Source: a virus
Taxonomy: Duplodnaviria; Heunggongvirae; Uroviricota; Caudoviricetes
Direction: 5' to 3' (one strand)
Virus record (IMG/VR): IMGVR_UViG_2529293040_000016
DNA: 16,688 bases
Shown here: in pieces, positions 3,121 to 16,610 of the stretch
Layout of the letters: every line of letters starts with the position of its first letter
Numbering within the stretch: the stretch's first letter is position 1
The notes under the pieces: model-generated
Told to the model about the DNA's origin: nothing
The model's input: the letters and a program-made list of their open reading frames with translations, nothing else
The model's database searches: none
Position numbers and translations under genes: made by a program

Positions 3121-3173
3121 CGGCGGCAGAGCAGTCACGGAGTAAAACTGATACCGCCAAACGTCACCAGAAA
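3121..3173 (-). ncRNA. dicF: DicF small regulatory RNA (ftsZ-targeting sRNA of Qin-type prophages)
   Basis: Reverse complement of 3121-3173 reads TTTCTGGTGACGTTTGGCGGTATCAGTTTTACTCCGTGACTGCTCTGCCGCCG, essentially identical to the DicF sequence as I remember it, followed by a U-run on the minus strand. Correct position upstream of dicB. Confidence 0.8.
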
Positions 3174-7786: not shown

Positions 7787-7918
7787 AGGCTATAAACCGA
7801 CTAACAACTAAATACTGAAGATTTAAATCAGAAACGATTTTTATTAAATCCTTAACCGGAGGGATTCCTGCACCCTCAAATCATCAGGAGGCCGCCCGAA
7901 AGGGCGGTGGAGATAATA

Positions 7919-8413
7919 ATGGGAATAACTAAAGAACGATTGTTGGAAATAGCAAACCTTAGTGATTGGGCATTAAGTGATGAGAGAATTGTTTCTCCTC
8001 ATGCTTATGAGTCAGTTACAAGTATAGAAATAACAACAATGGCTAGAATGCTGCTTGGTTATTTCAAAATAGAAAATAAAAAACAGATGGATAGTAATGT
8101 TGATATATGTGAGATTTTAGACGATTGGGGGGCTTGGGTTGTGGCTGGTAATAGTTCTATTGATTGGCAGGAAATAGCTGATAAATATAAAAATGTTGTT
8201 CCTCATGGTAAAAAATCACGTCGTCAGTGCAGCAATGATGAAGGGCGAATTATTGACATTAGTATCCTTAGGTTAGAAAGATATAAGCAACAAGAATATG
8301 AGTTAATTGTTGCTCATTTCGTGATTGGTTTATCTCTTCGTGCTATTGCAAAGCAACAAGGATGTTCAGATGGAACAATTCGTAAAAGATTGCAAAAAGC
8401 CTTAGGTTTTTGA
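7919..8413 (+). CDS. HTH regulator with sigma-70 region-4 / LuxR-like C-terminal helix-turn-helix (164 aa), encoded in the low-GC island
   Basis: Track ORF 7907..8413; the ATG at 7919 has GGAG 6 nt upstream. C-terminus ...EYELIVAHFVIGLSLRAIAKQQGCSDGTIRKRLQKALGF resembles sigma region 4 / LuxR HTH. Markedly AT-rich. Convergent with the three-gene cassette. Confidence 0.65.
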   Translation: MGITKERLLEIANLSDWALSDERIVSPHAYESVTSIEITTMARMLLGYFKIENKKQMDSNVDICEILDDWGAWVVAGNSSIDWQEIADKYKNVVPHGKKSRRQCSNDEGRIIDISILRLERYKQQEYELIVAHFVIGLSLRAIAKQQGCSDGTIRKRLQKALGF

Positions 8414-8435
8414 CTGGATATATAGCAATTACCAG

Positions 8436-9077
8436 TTAAGAGTCAGCGGTTTTTTTACCAGTGTAATGGTATAAGGATACTCCCATGTGTCTTACATGAT
8501 ATGGAAGCGCTGTTGCTGGATGCTTTGTGATACTCTTAAAGCGGAGGGGAGAGCCTTCCGCTTCAATTTCTGCGTCCGAAACGGTCGTAGAGAAAAATTC
8601 TTTCCATTCATTGAATTTTACTGCTGATTTGTCAGACTTTATATAAATTAGAATTCCTCCATGATCGTCACGTGACGTACCCGTGCCGTAACGTTCGGTT
8701 AGCTGAATCCAGCCATTATGAATAGATTTGGGGCCTCTCCATAATTTTGCTTCACCGATCCATTCGAATTTTCCGAATTGATGTTTAACTAATAAATCAA
8801 CGTGACCGCCATGTTGAGTATCATGTTCAACATCATAAAACCTACCTTTCAGGAAATTTTTGATCGACGCTGTTAGCTCGTCCTCTCCCCACTTAGCATC
8901 TTGATAGAAGTGTTTGTCATTTTCTAAATTCTGAATAGCGTCGTCTAAATCTTCATAGAGTTGCTTTACAAAAATATTTTTGTCTGCAGCTAATTTTCTT
9001 TGAACCATTCCCCTAAATTCAGGATCCATTCTAATTAATGATTGAAGGTCTGCAGTACAGATGTTTACATCACTCAT
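8436..9077 (-). CDS. Cassette gene 3: putative PD-(D/E)xK-fold nuclease (213 aa)
   Basis: Track ORF 8436..9140; the ATG at 9077 has GGAGAG upstream and lies 4 nt after the stop of the preceding gene. Motif GGHVDLLVK ... FEWIGEAK fits the hhhD ... hhE-x-K spacing of restriction-endonuclease-like nucleases. Assignment is inference from motif only. Confidence 0.6.
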   Translation of the reverse strand: MSDVNICTADLQSLIRMDPEFRGMVQRKLAADKNIFVKQLYEDLDDAIQNLENDKHFYQDAKWGEDELTASIKNFLKGRFYDVEHDTQHGGHVDLLVKHQFGKFEWIGEAKLWRGPKSIHNGWIQLTERYGTGTSRDDHGGILIYIKSDKSAVKFNEWKEFFSTTVSDAEIEAEGSPLRFKSITKHPATALPYHVRHMGVSLYHYTGKKTADS

Positions 9078-9498
9078 GCAGACTCTCCAAAAGACTCGAA
9101 GGAGTAAAGTATGGATAAAGATACTGGCTAAAATTATCAACCAATTCGCCAGTTTCTGGATGGTAAAAACTTCCTGTGTCTAAAGCATAGGAAATAAGAT
9201 CATCTTCAACTGGTATTGGTTCTTCCGTTAAATTATCAATGTATTGAAAATGCATATCCAATAGATGTGCTTTATAGCTAGATAAATAATCAGTTGCTTT
9301 TATTAGCAGGATATAGTCATCTTTCGTATCAGTTAGATAGGTTAAACCATTGATAAGGGTTTTGTATGTAAAGTGATTGATATTTTTAGCATCTTTACTA
9401 ACCAGAAAAAGAAAAAGATCACGACACACACTGCGAACAGGATCATTAAAATCCTGCTCTATTTGCGTGATAATGTCGTGATATATACTCTTTTTCAT
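9070..9498 (-). CDS. Cassette gene 2: acidic hypothetical protein (142 aa)
   Basis: Track ORF. Its ATG overlaps the stop of the upstream ORF as ATGA, indicating translational coupling. No recognisable domain. Confidence 0.6.
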   Translation of the reverse strand: MKKSIYHDIITQIEQDFNDPVRSVCRDLFLFLVSKDAKNINHFTYKTLINGLTYLTDTKDDYILLIKATDYLSSYKAHLLDMHFQYIDNLTEEPIPVEDDLISYALDTGSFYHPETGELVDNFSQYLYPYFTPSSLLESLHE

Positions 9499-10585
9499 TT
9501 ATGGCCTGATGATCTCGCTCTTCTTTTCTCTTCACAGGACTTAACAGAATCCAATATTTTTTCAACAATAAATATAATCGAATCAATGTTGTTACAGTTC
9601 TTCGCAATTGCTTCATGCAACCTAATTCTAGGATTATCAAGCATTGTCCTTTTTCCTGGTAATATTAACTCTACTGATAAAATATGTGAAGAACTTTGTG
9701 GTAAATCCCAAATTTTTCCCAACTTAAACTTTGTCAATATTGGGCTTGCGGACTCTCCACTATGATGGTAAACATCTTGACGCAAACACTTTTGACTTGG
9801 TTTGAGTTTTAAAGAACTTGTATTGCCATCTGAGGTGATAAAAGATACATGAGAAATTCTGCCATCTACTTTTTCGTAAAGATCTTGTATTGAACCAAAT
9901 AATTCAAGAGGATTGTTTAAAATAACGCCAGCTTCTTTTTTATAAATTTAGCCACAAGGTATTGTTGAGGCTGTGATTCACTTCTTGGAAGGATAGATAA
10001 ATCAATCGTAAGAATTAATATTTTTTCTGCAGGCATTAGCATGATGGTATTAAAGCATTGCGTGACTTGGCGTGTTTTGCATTTTATTTCTCCACCATTA
10101 GCACGTAATTCCATACCCGCATCGCTAAGATGTGTTGGGTCAAGCTCTATCACTTCAGTGTAATACGCTTTGGATAAAAAAACAGCAGTGTCAATTTGTT
10201 TATCACGAATGATATCTTGACGTAGTTCAGCAAAATGCAGCTCAGTATCAGCAACTAACAGCTCCTCTCTGGATAAAGGAATTGGGTATTTTTCTGAGAA
10301 GGGGCTATTGTCCTTTTTCTGATTTGTGAAAATTGTTTGTAATTTTGCTACGTCTTCATCGGTGATTCTATAAATAGAAAGTAATCGATTCCCGCTAAAA
10401 ATTAAACCTTTCCAGAAATCGTCGATTCTGTCTTTTAGGTCGGGATTATGCTGAACTACACTATTTACACGTTCAATAAAAAGGGGTAATCCTTGGGCCG
10501 TTACACCCAGTGATGAACCAAGAAGCTTACGGGTGTTGCGCCAGCCAAAGCGTGAATTGATGTTTTTTACTGTTTGCTCAAGCAT
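9495..10585 (-). CDS. Cassette gene 1: protein of unknown function encoded in two frames (zero-frame product 222 aa; -1 fusion product about 363 aa)
   Basis: Track ORFs 9917..10591 and 9495..9785; the ATG at 10585 has AAGGAAG 6 nt upstream. The frame of the downstream ORF is open all the way up to 9947 and is -1 relative to the upstream ORF. The overlap contains A_AAA_AAG in the zero frame (plus-strand 9935-9941). Confidence 0.55.
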
Positions 10586-10726
10586 TAACACTTCCTTAAT
10601 TTTCCCTTAACAATTTAGGGTGCTAAACTTTTTTGCGCAGTTTACATAAAAAAATAGTGCGTACGCAAAAACTATCTAACATGATGAGCTTTAACCGGGA
10701 AATTTGTATATGTTGTGAGCATAAAG

Positions 10727-10755
10727 TTGGCTGAGAAATCTAAAACGGGTAGAAT
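10727..10755 (+). promoter_or_regulatory. Candidate hok/mok mRNA promoter (TTGGCT - 17 bp - TAGAAT)
   Basis: Hexamers read from the sequence at 10727-10732 and 10750-10755. A transcript from here to the terminator at about 11181 would be about 420 nt, typical of hok mRNAs. Not verified. Confidence 0.35.
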
Positions 10756-10874
10756 GACTGCGGGTGCTTGAGGCTATCTGTCTCAGGCATGAACACCAAA
10801 AGGCAGATAGAGAAAAGCCCCAGTTAACATTACGCGTCCGGCAAGACGCTTAACATTAATCTGAGGCCATATCT

Positions 10875-11087
10875 ATGCTCTACACACGTAGGTTAGCCTC
10901 TTACGTGCCGAAAGGCAAGGAGAAGCAGGCTATGAAGCAGCAAAAGGCGATGTTAATCGCCCTGATCGTCATCTGTTTAACCGTCATAATGACGGCACTG
11001 GTAACGAGGAAAGACCTCTGCGAGGTACGAATCCGAACCGGCCAGACGGAGGTCGCTGTCTTCACAGCTTACGAACCTGAGGAGTAA
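10875..11087 (+). CDS. mok: Mok-like regulatory ORF (in-frame N-terminal extension of hok)
   Basis: 70-aa track ORF containing the hok ORF in the same frame, as in chromosomal mokC/hokC loci (recalled). Confidence 0.55.
   Translation: MLYTRRLASYVPKGKEKQAMKQQKAMLIALIVICLTVIMTALVTRKDLCEVRIRTGQTEVAVFTAYEPEE
10932..11087 (+). CDS. hok: Hok/Gef-family type I toxin (51 aa)
   Basis: MKQQKAMLIALIVICLTVIMTALVTRKDLCEVRIRTGQTEVAVFTAYEPEE is a clear Hok-family sequence (TM helix plus conserved ...TRKDLCEV...RTGQTEVAVF...). AAGGAG SD 9 nt upstream of the ATG. Confidence 0.85.
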   Translation: MKQQKAMLIALIVICLTVIMTALVTRKDLCEVRIRTGQTEVAVFTAYEPEE

Positions 11088-12595: not shown

Positions 12596-12955
12596 ATGCT
12601 CATAGATTTGGTTTTACCTTACCCGCCGACGGTGAACACTTACTGGCGACGCCGTGGCAGCACATATTTTGTATCAAAAGTCGGTGAGCGTTATCGCCGT
12701 GATGTGGCGCTTATTGTTCGCCAGCAGCAACTGAAATTAAACCTGTCCGGAAGGCCGGCAATAGAAATTATTGCAGAGCCACCGGATAAGCGCCGTCGTG
12801 ACCTGGACAATATCCTGAAGGCACCACTGGATGTACTGACGCATGCGGGGCTGCTCATAGACGACGAGCAGTTTGATGAAATTAATATTGTGCGCGGTCA
12901 GCTTGTTCCTGGTGGGCGGTTGGGGATAAAAATCACAGAACTGGAGTATGCATGA
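12596..12955 (+). CDS. rusA: Holliday-junction resolvase RusA
   Basis: 119 aa. Conserved RusA signatures read by eye (N-terminal LPYPPTVNTYW, catalytic region PDKRRRDLDN, C-terminal GGRLGIKITE) align with E. coli RusA from memory. AGAGGTG SD. Stop overlaps the Q start as ATGA. Confidence 0.85.
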   Translation: MLIDLVLPYPPTVNTYWRRRGSTYFVSKVGERYRRDVALIVRQQQLKLNLSGRPAIEIIAEPPDKRRRDLDNILKAPLDVLTHAGLLIDDEQFDEINIVRGQLVPGGRLGIKITELEYA

Positions 12956-13641
12956 ATAACCAGTATTTACAGTTTGTTCGTGAGCAACTCATGATTGCCA
13001 CCGCCGATTTGAGTGGATCAACAAAAGGGCAGCTTGAGGCCTGGCAGGAGAATGCCATGTTTGATACAGGGCGTTACAGGCGTAAAAAAATCCGGTACCG
13101 CGATGAAGTGACTGGAAAAATGATAACGCGGGATAATCCACCAATCCCGGGAAAGCAATCGCTGGCGAAGGGGGCGTCAATTCCTCTCGTCAGTCCGGTT
13201 GAGTTTTTGACATCATCGTGGCGGCGGGCTGTTCTGTCTCTTGAAGAACATCATAAAGCCTGGTTGTTGTGGTGTTACAGCGGGAGTATTTGTTGGGAAT
13301 ATCAGATCGCGATAACACAGTGGGCGTGGAATGAATTTAATACTCAATCCGGTACCAGAAAAATTGCTGGGAAAACGCAGGAACGCCTGAAAAAATTAAT
13401 CTGGCTGGCGGCGCAGGCAGTAAAAGCAGAACTTTTTGGTGGGGAAGGTTATGAATATCAGGAGCTGGCATTACTGGCGGGAGTGACAACTAAAAACTGG
13501 TCCAAAACATTTACTCGTCACTGGGTTGCAATGAAACACATTTTTCACCGACTGGATAGTGAGGCTTTATTATTTGTAATGAGAACACGTTCAAAACAAA
13601 AGGCGGCATTTTCAAAGCAAAGTGTTGCAAAAGTAGATTGA
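12952..13641 (+). CDS. Late-gene antiterminator Q-like protein (229 aa)
   Basis: Track ORF immediately followed by a pR'-like promoter and strong intrinsic terminator, and preceded by rusA, which is the canonical nin-Q-pR'-tR' arrangement. Assignment is mainly by context. Confidence 0.65.
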   Translation: MNNQYLQFVREQLMIATADLSGSTKGQLEAWQENAMFDTGRYRRKKIRYRDEVTGKMITRDNPPIPGKQSLAKGASIPLVSPVEFLTSSWRRAVLSLEEHHKAWLLWCYSGSICWEYQIAITQWAWNEFNTQSGTRKIAGKTQERLKKLIWLAAQAVKAELFGGEGYEYQELALLAGVTTKNWSKTFTRHWVAMKHIFHRLDSEALLFVMRTRSKQKAAFSKQSVAKVD

Positions 13642-13731: not shown

Positions 13732-13857
13732 GTGCCACTTATCTCGGATAGACATGGTGAATGCGCTGGTGGAGGAGATAAGGGTGATTTTTGTATGCTT
13801 GCAAGTAACCGGCTCATTTAAACCGTCTGGTCTGTTTCCTCCGGCTCTACAAAAATA

Positions 13858-14533
13858 ATGTCCATCATTTTTAATGGACACTATCGTATGAAACACCGGA
13901 CCTGGATCACTGAAGCTTTACGTCTTCACTTTGAAGAACATTTACCCCGGGTTGTGGCCGGGCGTCGCCTGGGTGTACCAAAATCAACAGTTTGTAGTAT
14001 GTTCGTGCGCTTTCGGAGAGCTGGCCTTTCGTGGCCTTTGCCCGCAGGCATGTCGGAGCAGGAACTTGATGCCTGCCTTTACGGACAATTTTCCACGGTA
14101 CCAGTCGTACGTCCTGAAAGCACCGTTATATCCGAAGCCCCCGTGGTAAAAACGTCCCCGGCGGCCCAACTTCCCTTATGAGTTTAAAATCGCCTTAGTG
14201 GAGCAGTCACTGCAGCCCGGAGCCTGTGTGGCGCAGATCGCCCGGGAAAACGGAATCAACGATAACCTGCTCTTCAACTGGCGCCATCAATACCGGAAAG
14301 GTGGCCTGCTGCCTTCCGGAAAAAATATGCCGGCACTGCTTCCCGTGACGTTAACGCCGGAGCCGGATAATAAAATCCCGGCCCCCGCACAGGAACCAGA
14401 GCAGATAAATACACCGTCCGACAGTCTGTGTTGTGAGCTGGTTCTGCCGGCCGGAACTCTCAGGCTTAAAGGTAAACTGACGCCGGCGTTATTACAGACA
14501 CTTATCCGCGAAATAAAAGGGAGCAGCCACTGA
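13858..14533 (+). CDS. tnpA: IS66-family tnpA, split between two frames (13858..14181 and 14150..14533)
   Basis: The downstream frame carries the conserved TnpA core (RRPNFPYEFK...PGACVAQIARENGINDNLLFNWRHQY) but has a TAA immediately upstream of it. The upstream 107-aa ORF (HTH-like) ends 30 nt later in the +1-offset frame. The overlap contains AAAAA and CCCC runs. Confidence 0.5.
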
Positions 14534-14880
14534 TGATATCTCTCCCTGCAGGTTCGCGTATCTGGCTGGTTGCAGGTATCACCGATATGCGAAATGGCTT
14601 TAACGGCCTGGCATCAAAAGTTCAGAACGTCCTGAAGGATGACCCGTTCTCCGGACACCTGTTCATCTTCCGCGGACGCCGGGGTGACCAGATAAAAGTG
14701 TTGTGGGCTGACAGTGACGGACTGTGCCTCTTCACCAAACGCCTGGAGCGGGGCCGCTTCGTCTGGCCAGTCACCCGTGACGGCAAGGTGCACCTTACTC
14801 CGGCTCAGTTATCCATGCTTCTTGAAGGTATCAACTGGAAGCACCCGAAACGAACGGAACGCGCTGGAATCCGCATATAA
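14533..14880 (+). CDS. tnpB: IS66-family TnpB (Orf2, 115 aa)
   Basis: Sequence MISLPAGSRIWLVAGITDMRNGFNGLASKVQNVL...FRGRRGDQIKVLWADSDGLCLFTKRLERGRFVWP is the characteristic IS66 Orf2 signature. Start overlaps the tnpA stop as TGATG. Confidence 0.85.
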   Translation: MISLPAGSRIWLVAGITDMRNGFNGLASKVQNVLKDDPFSGHLFIFRGRRGDQIKVLWADSDGLCLFTKRLERGRFVWPVTRDGKVHLTPAQLSMLLEGINWKHPKRTERAGIRI

Positions 14881-14899
14881 CCCGTTGTAAAGTGAGGAT

Positions 14900-16471
14900 A
14901 TGGACACCTCACTTGCTCATGAGAACGCCCGCCTGCGGGCACTGTTGCAGACGCAACAGGACACCATCCGCCAGATGGCTGAATACAACCGCCTGCTCTC
15001 ACAGCGGGTGGCGGCTTATGCTTCCGAAATCAACCGGCTGAAGGCGCTGGTTGCGAAACTGCAACGTATGCAGTTCGGTAAAAGCTCAGAAAAACTTCGT
15101 GCAAAAACCGAACGGCAGATACAGGAAGCACAGGAGCGAATCAGCGCACTTCAGGAAGAAATGGCGGAAACGCTGGGTGAGCAATATGACCCGGTACTGC
15201 CATCCGCCCTGCGCCAGTCTTCAGCCCGTAAACCGTTACCGGCCTCACTTCCCCGTGAAACCCGGGTTATCCGGCCGGAAGAGGAATGCTGTCCTGCCTG
15301 TGGTGGTGAACTCAGTTCTCTGGGATGTGATGTGTCAGAGCAACTGGAGCTTATCAGCAGCGCCTTTAAGGTTATCGAAACACAACGTCCGAAACAGGCC
15401 TGTTGCCGGTGCGACCATATCGTGCAGGCACCAGTACCTTCAAAACCCATTGCACGCAGTTATGCCGGAGCGGGGCTTCTGGCCCATGTTGTCACCGGGA
15501 AATATGCAGACCATCTGCCGTTATACCGCCAGTCAGAAATATACCGTCGTCAGGGCGTGGAGCTGAGCCGTGCCACACTGGGGCGCTGGACAGGTGCTGT
15601 TGCTGAACTGCTGGAGCCGCTGTATGACGTCCTGCGCCAGTATGTGCTGATGCCCGGTAAAGTCCATGCTGATGATATCCCCGTCCCGGTCCAGGAGCCG
15701 GGCAGCGGTAAAACCCGGACAGCCCGGCTGTGGGTCTACGTCCGTGATGACCGTAACGCCGGTTCACAGATGCCCCCGGCGGTCTGGTTCGCGTACAGTC
15801 CGGACCGGAAAGGTATCCATCCACAAAATCACCTGGCCGGTTACAGCGGTGTGCTTCAGGCCGATGCTTACGGTGGTTACCGGGCGTTATACGAATCCGG
15901 CAGAATAACGGAAGCCGCGTGTATGGCTCATGCCCGGAGAAAAATCCACGATGTGCATGCAAGAGCGCCCACCTACATCACCACGGAAGCCCTGCAGCGT
16001 ATCGGTGAACTGTATGCCATCGAGGCAGAGGTCCGGTGCTGTTCAGCAGAACAGCGTCTGGCGGCAAGAAAAGCCAGAGCCGCGCCACTGATGCAGTCAC
16101 TGTATGACTGGATACAGCAACAGATGAAAACACTGTCGCGTCACTCAGATACGGCAAAAGCGTTCGCATACCTGCTGAAACAGTGGGATGCACTGAACGT
16201 GTACTGCAGTAATGGCTGGGTGGAAATCGACAACAACATCGCAGAGAACGCCTTACGGGGAGTGGCCGTAGGCCGGAAAAACTGGATGTTCGCGGGTTCC
16301 GACAGCGGTGGTGAACATGCGGCGGTGTTGTACTCGCTGATCGGCACATGCCGTCTGAACAATGTGGAGCCAGAAAAGTGGCTGCGTTACGTCATTGAAC
16401 ATATCCAGGACTGGCCGGCAAACCGGGTACGCGATCTGTTGCCCTGGAAAGTTGATCTGAGCTCTCAGTAA
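14900..16471 (+). CDS. tnpC: IS66-family transposase TnpC (523 aa)
   Basis: N-terminal leucine-zipper-like coiled coil, Cys4 zinc finger (CPACGG...CCRCDH), and a long catalytic region typical of IS66 transposases. GTGAGG SD upstream. Confidence 0.85.
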
Positions 16472-16610
16472 ATATCAATACGGTTCTGACGAGTCGCTTA
16501 CGATAAATGCACCGGCATCATCATAAAAAGTGAGCCAGCCAAATGGAAGGTATCGTTAAACTCACCGGTAGTGTCAGTGGGTCGTCTGAGATGCCTGCAT
16601 GAGTTATCAG

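Follow-up and report, generated by a model that had tools for sequence, protein, structure and literature searches.

PANGU is a recently described and experimentally validated two-gene abortive-infection defence (bioRxiv 10.64898/2026.04.06.716658). Its sensor, a YejK-like nucleoid protein, responds to the genome degradation that a phage causes and switches on variable effectors. A system that includes a YejK domain was independently validated by DefensePredictor. The structure of lambda RexA was reported to resemble those of RdgC, IML3, and CHL4, and the protein binds DNA non-specifically (PMC11077077); RdgC is a modulator of RecA (as cited in PMC11077077). Likewise, the N-domain of YejK was reported to be similar to RdgC and CENP-N, and both YejK and RdgC belong to the nucleoid and encircle DNA as rings (PMC11229321). 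Here, we analyzed a three-gene cassette in a low-GC island of the tailed-phage record IMGVR_UViG_2529293040_000016 of IMG/VR. The whole stretch of 16,688 nucleotides (nt) is referred to as the window. It holds a Rac/Qin-like lambdoid prophage with 99.6% identity over 13.8 kb to a prophage of E. coli O127:H6 E2348/69. The genes are numbered 1 to 3 along the operon, and their products are called A, B, and C.

The three genes are inherited together, and they move jointly between mobile-element settings that are unrelated. The first encodes a protein with a predicted RdgC-like fold, the second a small acidic protein, and the third a protein with a predicted nuclease fold. Many candidate defence systems of this sort, without functional tests, already exist. 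On the whole, we lean toward the reading that the island carries an undescribed three-gene anti-phage cassette with a putative sensor, adaptor, and nuclease. The specific sensor-adaptor-nuclease relay is less likely than a defence function as such.

A coupled three-gene operon that recurs as a unit

The three genes lie on the minus strand and are translationally coupled from 10585 to 8436, as the first-pass annotation of the window had read them. Genes 1 and 2 are joined by the ATGA overlap that it described. The junction of genes 2 and 3 had to be corrected. Gene 3 was thought to start 4 nt after gene 2, and its ATG at 9077 in fact sits 8 nt inside the end of gene 2 (ATGAGTGA).

The gene 1 family was represented by at least 500 sequences (50%-identity clusters) at E <= 1e-3 in a deep profile search, and most of the 150 listed matches were full-length, at about 335-400 amino acids (aa). 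The A-B-C order and the gene sizes were constant wherever the flanking sequence sufficed; contig L029 ends inside the second gene. Homology of all three genes was confirmed across remote cassettes by sequence and profile comparison, and the 8-nt overlap of genes 2 and 3 was found again in six lineages. The earlier proposal of a self-contained, tightly coupled operon ending in a nuclease-fold protein is supported.

The surroundings of the cassette differ widely. It was found in the tail region of a Yersinia prophage, in a Shewanella islet between a resolvase and a DUF6538 protein, and in a metagenomic phage adjoining a HipA-family kinase gene. A second E. coli prophage family carries it between Q and the holin gene. 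Other copies adjoin ParE/Phd or lie inside a toxin-antitoxin run of PIN, MNT/HepT, YhaV, and ParE-like genes, and further copies occupy an ordinary chromosomal site (L019) and a site in Acinetobacter. In E. coli, the cassette was present in 26 of 5,426 complete genomes, as two variants (14 and 12 genomes). This presence is rare and patchy, as would be expected of accessory defence cargo. Among sequenced phage isolates, the sole relative was a remote Acinetobacter one, on bacterial-looking contigs.

Gene 1 spans two frames in the window, as had been noticed before, and the cause is a 1-nt contraction of an A7 run to A6. The gene is a single uninterrupted open reading frame (ORF) of 363 aa in E2348/69, where the cassette lies at 1437328-1439478 of NC_011601.1, and in several further genomes. 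Four indels separate the window from E2348/69 over the 13.8 kb. Because each of the four is the loss of a single T from the window, and three of these losses fall in T6-T7 runs, the frameshift of the window is likely a homopolymer sequencing error. If the indel were genuine and not such an error, the window copy would be inactive. In E. coli DEC6B, the deposited product has 222 aa, a length equal to that of the truncated gene 1 product of the window. Independent 1-nt deletions in gene 1 were found in two other complete genomes, at 10412 in JB2 (L015) and at the start codon in N51 (L017), and RM9154-C1 (L016) carries a 1-nt deletion in the Q-like gene that flanks the cassette. The near-identical island copies of these three strains thus have two single-base deletions in gene 1, one in the Q-like gene, and none in genes 2 and 3, numbers that are too small to separate selection from assembly error. 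The breaks in gene 1 reflect either real decay or assembly error, and the ancestral gene is intact either way. Cluster P0053 (219 aa, 74 members) was considered as evidence of a common frameshift allele and was rejected, as it is a C-terminal fragment that reads in frame through the A-run.

None of the three proteins was significantly matched in Pfam, NCBIfam, or PADLOC. A defence-predictor check of the kind suggested by the first-pass annotation was run with PADLOC v2.0.0, and no system model covers the cassette. When 63 diverse members of the gene 1 family were scanned with the same version, no model matched more than one member. All three proteins belong to PHROG families, each of unknown function. 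In profile searches of the PDB with A, B, and C, matches to Rab and FMRP were discarded as noise, and no real matches were obtained. None of the ten accessions tried was present in the DefensePredictor supplements. The cassette is therefore described here as a conserved and apparently undescribed three-gene unit, for which a prior description under another name is possible.

Predicted folds of the encoded proteins

The earlier statement that none of the proteins could be assigned to a family holds at the sequence level. It no longer holds once predicted structures are compared, where the gene 3 model is BamHI/BstYI-like and the gene 1 model is RdgC-like.

The AlphaFold model of the gene 3 product has a mean predicted local distance difference test (pLDDT) score of 92.8. 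A PD-(D/E)xK-like motif had been pointed out in this protein, and both the conservation and the fold bear this out. Across 39 homologues, and also across seven distant cassettes with identity as low as 29%, residues E65, D94, E109, K111, and Q125 do not vary. In the model, D94 lies in strand 91-98, and E109-A-K111 lies in the next core strand, 105-112. The D...(D/E)xK motif and a restriction-endonuclease-like alpha/beta core, by which the superfamily is recognized, are both present. The closest folds were those of true Type II restriction enzymes (the BamHI/BglII/BstYI/OkrAI group) and of McrC. Based on the model, we are confident that the gene 3 product is a member of the PD-(D/E)xK nuclease superfamily with a BstYI/BamHI-like fold, and nuclease activity is predicted for it. 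A profile search of the PDB gave no sequence-level match to any solved structure. One gene 3 entry in UniRef is labelled 'Restriction endonuclease'. The model has an N-terminal helical extension only and no obvious specificity domain. No methyltransferase domain was found in the three proteins or in the neighbouring genes, and the cassette moves without one.

The gene 1 model was compared with the whole PDB using Foldseek. RdgC was the only significant match (E = 1.6e-5), with a template modelling (TM) score of 0.30-0.34, and Iml3, CENP-L, Chl4, and CENP-N were also among the structural matches; these proteins have been described as structurally related to RexA (PMC11077077) and to YejK (PMC11229321). 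The predicted fold of A is RdgC-like, of the class that also includes RexA and YejK. The low TM-score against RdgC suggests a different domain arrangement; at its N-terminus the model has about 60 additional residues folded as a helical bundle, and it ends in a long helix. The most conserved motif covers residues 266-295 (about 9790-9700 of the window, minus strand), in which R269, H274, G277, and W293 are nearly invariant in the 63 diverse members. This motif coincides with the loop of lowest model confidence (pLDDT <50 at residues 268-285). Residues 266-295 would be the place to look for a DNA- or partner-binding element.

At the sequence level, gene 1 was not connected to these proteins. 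No match to PF04245 (NA37) was obtained for gene 1 itself at E <= 5 or for the 63 members at E <= 0.01. The hhalign comparison of the gene 1 family profile with an NA37 protein found in the same prophage slot gave 0.15%. Against E. coli RdgC, it gave 0.8%, with RdgC entered as a single sequence and thus with limited sensitivity, and there was no match to the Pfam RdgC family (PF04381). A common origin of gene 1 with the other first genes of the slot (DUF6731, NA37, and the L014 protein) or with RdgC was considered; hhalign values were <1% throughout with 31- and 63-sequence profiles, and this origin is unsupported at the sequence level.

The gene 2 product was acidic in six of six cassettes checked (pI 4.6-6.1). 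The gene is fast-evolving and still recognizable, and the second genes of distant cassettes are homologous (hhalign 84%). No family was matched in Pfam, NCBIfam, or PADLOC, and no PDB relatives were found by sequence profile.

Prophage setting and the cargo slot

The backbone order of the prophage is dicB with DicF, cI/cro-like regulators with YdaT, replication genes, DUF977, a Q-family gene, the island, hokD, DUF968, RusA, a second Q gene, and lysis genes. The sharp drop to AT-rich composition noted in the first-pass annotation was reproduced by windowed calculation. In 400-nt windows, GC content was 0.32-0.40 at about 7800-10800, compared with about 0.50 to the left and 0.52-0.57 to the right. 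By segment, it was 0.347 for the Q-like gene, 0.389, 0.333, and 0.363 for genes 3, 2, and 1, respectively, and 0.347 for the region upstream of the operon, with 0.50-0.52 in the flanks. The island had been drawn from 7790 to 10870. Low GC was confirmed for the island, and the last approximately 110 bases of the span drawn (10762-10870) belong to hok/sok. The right edge was set at about 10760 because the match to the sok/hok RNA in Rfam begins at 10762. These data support the view that the segment is a cargo of foreign composition (a moron) in a variable slot of the prophage. The features are collected in Table 1.

Table 1. Features of the low-GC island and its borders (window positions)
Feature	Position	Strand	Remarks
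Low-GC block: Q-like gene, three-gene cassette, and upstream region	7800..10761	.	From GC by segment; right edge from the sok/hok Rfam match at 10762
Antiterminator Q-family gene (PF06530), conserved left flank of the cargo slot	7919..8413	+	Pfam Phage_antitermQ, E = 6e-30; intact copy, 9e-32
Gene 3 (C), PD-(D/E)xK nuclease (predicted), 213 aa, putative effector	8436..9077	-	Codons: E65, 8885-8883; D94, 8798-8796; E109, 8753-8751; K111, 8747-8745
Gene 2 (B), 142 aa, acidic, putative adaptor or nuclease inhibitor	9070..9498	-	Isoelectric point (pI) 4.6; PHROG 11490, a function-unknown family
Gene 1 (A), predicted RdgC-like fold, putative DNA-binding sensor, 363 aa if intact	9495..10585	-	Window frames 10585-9917 and 9785-9495; ribosome-binding site AAGGAAG, 10597-10591; ATG at 10585
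Gene 1 frameshift site: A6 on the coding strand, A7 in intact copies	9936..9941	-	Alignment with E2348/69 and five other genomes
AT-rich region upstream of the operon, presumed to bear the promoter	10586..10761	-	GC 0.347
hok/sok type I toxin-antitoxin locus, conserved right flank, outside the island	10762..11087	+	Rfam sok RF01794, 117 bits, 10762-10937; hokD at the equivalent E2348/69 position

The plus-strand ORF at the left of the island had been taken for a generic helix-turn-helix regulator dedicated to the operon. Its match is to the phage antiterminator Q family, and the gene is convergent with the operon, not divergent from it. In other genomes, it is kept beside at least four unrelated cargos, so it belongs to the conserved border of the slot and is not the cassette's own regulator. 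In the window, the C-terminus of the Q-like gene is shortened by a 1-nt deletion in the T-run at 8407-8411 (T6 to T5). The intact form would run to about 8439, into the end of gene 3, and such an overlap of the two 3' ends is seen in intact copies. The 3' end of the cassette overlaps that of the convergent PF06530 Q gene in two unrelated lambdoid backbones, by 4 nt (L001:8648-8651) and by 25 nt (L023:9612-9636), which points either to a junction that arose repeatedly or to joint transfer of the Q gene and the cassette. The window prophage has two Q genes of different Pfam families, namely PF06530 beside the island and PF06323 ahead of the lysis genes (12952-13641).

The interval between the PF06530 Q gene and hok/sok is a cargo-exchange site in Rac/Qin-like prophages. 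In K-12 Qin, relB-relE lies directly beside hokD in the same backbone order, in agreement with the correspondence drawn by the first-pass annotation. In other E. coli strains, the cargo of this slot is always on the minus strand. One alternative cargo is an NA37 (YejK-like) protein followed by a partner of 406-477 aa (L012:5119-7582, L013:5095-7450), which is the layout of PANGU. One of these partners has a weak C-terminal match to a SAVED-fused 2TM domain, and no PADLOC model matched the NA37 protein or its partner. Another cargo pairs a DUF6731 protein (304 aa) with a 159-aa protein (L003:4607-6016, L011:5100-6509). The 159-aa partner showed weak matches to RexB (PADLOC E = 0.0015) and to cytochrome-b-like membrane proteins, and the DUF6731 pair may be another uncharacterised Rex-like pair. 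No paper mentioning DUF6731 was found in the literature searched. The fourth cargo consists of overlapping genes for proteins of 309 and 182 aa (L014:3163-4627) with no match in Pfam or PADLOC. The slot could be mined for further systems, such as the DUF6731 pair and the 309/182-aa pair.

Outside the slot, three other features of the window were recorded. The DicF small RNA lies at 3121-3172 on the minus strand (Rfam RF00039, 72.5 bits); it precedes dicB, the arrangement also seen in Qin. The window differs from E2348/69 by 49 substitutions, of which 31 are packed into 115 bp (2328-2442) within the exonuclease gene, and this cluster looks like a short recombination or gene-conversion patch. 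An IS66-family element occupies 13805-16500, with HTH_Tnp_1 at 14198-14533, TnpB_IS66 at 14533-14880, and a DDE transposase at 14900-16471. At this site, E2348/69 carries tRNA-Ile, tRNA-Arg, and an ISEc13 element instead, and there are no tRNA genes in the window.

Functional reading and comparison with known systems

If the cassette is defensive, A would sit on or survey DNA and would change state on infection, by analogy with RexA-RexB and PANGU. Its trigger may be phage-induced genome degradation or intermediates of phage replication and recombination. B would couple A to C, or hold C inactive. Once released, C would cut DNA and abort the infection. Lytic transcription of the prophage from the Q side is antisense to the operon, and, speculatively, it could silence the cassette and avoid self-targeting. 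Such self-silencing is suggested by two unrelated prophage backbones in which the cassette is oriented against transcription from the Q side and the 3' ends overlap.

Several points weigh against a defensive sensor-effector cassette. The defence function is wholly inferred. The link of A to DNA binding comes from a predicted fold with a low global TM-score (0.30-0.34), neither Pfam nor hhalign connected gene 1 with RdgC, NA37, or DUF6731 at the sequence level, and RexA was absent from the structural matches of gene 1. The role of B as an adaptor or inhibitor is putative. No system in PADLOC-DB v2.0.0 matched the cassette; the one weak local match was of gene 3 to PDC-S54 (E = 0.0016), over the nuclease motif. 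A literature search with protein accessions and with DUF6731, RdgC-like, and defence terms found no published description of the cassette. A consensus scan of the region upstream of gene 1 (10586-10761) gave no minus-strand promoter site that reached the threshold. Some cassettes (L019 and Acinetobacter) lie in ordinary chromosomal surroundings without nearby defence genes. Finally, gene 1 is broken in the window and in two other complete genomes, which could mean that the function has been lost, that a toxic system was selected against, or that the assemblies are in error.

Among the other explanations, we give some weight, clearly below that of defence, to a tripartite toxin-antitoxin (addiction) module that stabilises the mobile element. 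C would be the toxin, B the antitoxin, and A a DNA-binding regulator or chaperone, with phage defence as a side effect. A small acidic protein encoded directly upstream of the nuclease gene, with a conserved 8-nt overlap, is the classic antitoxin-toxin layout. Cassettes were found among ParE/Phd, PIN, HepT/MNT, and YhaV genes, and the slot itself lies beside hok/sok and holds relBE in Qin. However, gene 1 is as strictly conserved as genes 2 and 3 and always comes first, which is unusual for a plain type II pair, and no recognisable DNA-binding or antitoxin domain was found in B by Pfam and PDB profile searches. Disruption is confined to gene 1 in three genomes, where B and C are intact and the cells evidently viable, an observation that is uninformative on toxicity. 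The addiction reading also overlaps with the defensive one, since many toxin-antitoxin systems are abortive-infection defences. Killing of the cell would not be needed if the cassette were a solitary, Type IV-like restriction system without a methyltransferase, which we consider unlikely. In that case, A would load on or recognise incoming DNA (e.g., modified or unusual phage DNA), and C would cleave it. The resemblance of C to true Type II enzymes and McrC, the UniRef label, and the lack of a methyltransferase in or beside the operon all fit such a system, and sliding or threading on DNA would be consistent with the RdgC-like fold predicted for A. On the other hand, no recognisable modified-base reader (SRA, YTH/EVE, DUF3427, etc.), NTPase, or translocase was found, C is small (213 aa) with no obvious specificity domain, and the alternative cargos of the slot point to abortive-type sensor-effector systems.

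A further explanation is that the genes serve the phage itself in recombination, replication restart, or RecA modulation. Against it, the operon is antisense to the surrounding phage genes and of foreign GC, and it is interchangeable with unrelated cargos in the slot. It also occurs at plain chromosomal sites and in a toxin-antitoxin island outside prophages, and only 26 of 5,426 E. coli genomes carry it even though related prophage backbones are common. C resembles the BamHI/BglII class and not lambda-exonuclease or RecE. We regard this explanation as highly improbable, although an RdgC-like protein that dampens host RecA and works with a nuclease can be pictured: RdgC modulates RecA (cited in PMC11077077), PD-(D/E)xK nucleases are common in phage recombination modules, and all three proteins fall in PHROG families and hence have homologues in phage genomes.

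If it is defensive, the cassette adds a widespread system, found in Gammaproteobacteria and metagenomes, to the bacterial immune repertoire. It would also link lambda Rex, PANGU, and the housekeeping clamp RdgC through a shared principle, namely that DNA-binding rings or clamps detect infection and license different effectors. With its nuclease effector and small third protein, the cassette would be a workable system for studying the transfer of the sensor signal. A broader and tentative idea, which we hold with considerable doubt, is that proteins of the RdgC/RexA/YejK class are general DNA-state sentinels that mobile elements pair with interchangeable effectors. The cassette would then be a third, independently evolved branch, and the Q-like/hok slot would be a dedicated exchange site for sentinel-effector pairs. 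As a widespread and unnamed immune system (at least 500 sequence clusters), it would respond to the condition of the DNA in an infected cell rather than to one particular phage protein. The known or candidate effectors, in that event, would range from the membrane protein RexB, through the toxSAS and membrane effectors in PANGU, to the restriction-fold nuclease of the present cassette, reached through a small acidic adaptor.

The individual proteins and their architecture were compared with described systems. With E. coli RdgC (PF04381; PDB 2OWL), the gene 1 product shares the predicted fold and not the sequence family; RdgC is encoded by a solitary housekeeping gene, whereas gene 1 stands in an operon with a nuclease gene. 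The gene 3 product differs from the BamHI/BglII/BstYI/OkrAI Type II enzymes in having no cognate methyltransferase, no detectable sequence similarity, and a constant coupling to genes 1 and 2. Hachiman (HamA nuclease and HamB helicase) is comparable in that a PD-(D/E)xK effector would be restrained by, or activated through, a DNA-monitoring partner. However, the cassette has no helicase or ATPase, its partner proteins are unrelated, and no PADLOC match was obtained.

The likeness to RexA-RexB lies in the prophage-encoded cargo and in the logic of a sensor that triggers an effector, which applies to the cassette by analogy. In addition, the DUF6731 cargo of the same slot has the partner with the weak RexB-like match. 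In contrast to Rex, the cassette lies outside the immunity region, its putative effector is a soluble nuclease and not a membrane protein, and it has an additional small acidic protein. Genes 2 and 3 matched no membrane-protein family in library scans, in which no dedicated transmembrane prediction was made. RexA was not among the structural matches of gene 1, and no PADLOC Rex model matched gene 1.

There is also a likeness in architecture to PANGU. In the cassette, a protein of about 350 aa from the structural neighbourhood of RdgC and YejK, which are ring-forming non-specific DNA binders, is encoded first and the putative effector after it, in a tight modular operon. Furthermore, the NA37-plus-partner pairs of PANGU layout occupy the slot of the cassette in other E. 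coli strains. The differences are that gene 1 is no YejK/NA37 homologue by sequence, its predicted fold is nearer to RdgC than to YejK, and three conserved genes were present in every cassette examined, compared with two in PANGU. The PD-(D/E)xK effector is also not among the ten effector clusters listed for PANGU (bioRxiv 10.64898/2026.04.06.716658). Therefore, because gene 1 matched neither NA37 nor RexA, the operon has three genes, and its putative effector is a nuclease, the cassette is analogous to Rex and PANGU and is a member of neither.

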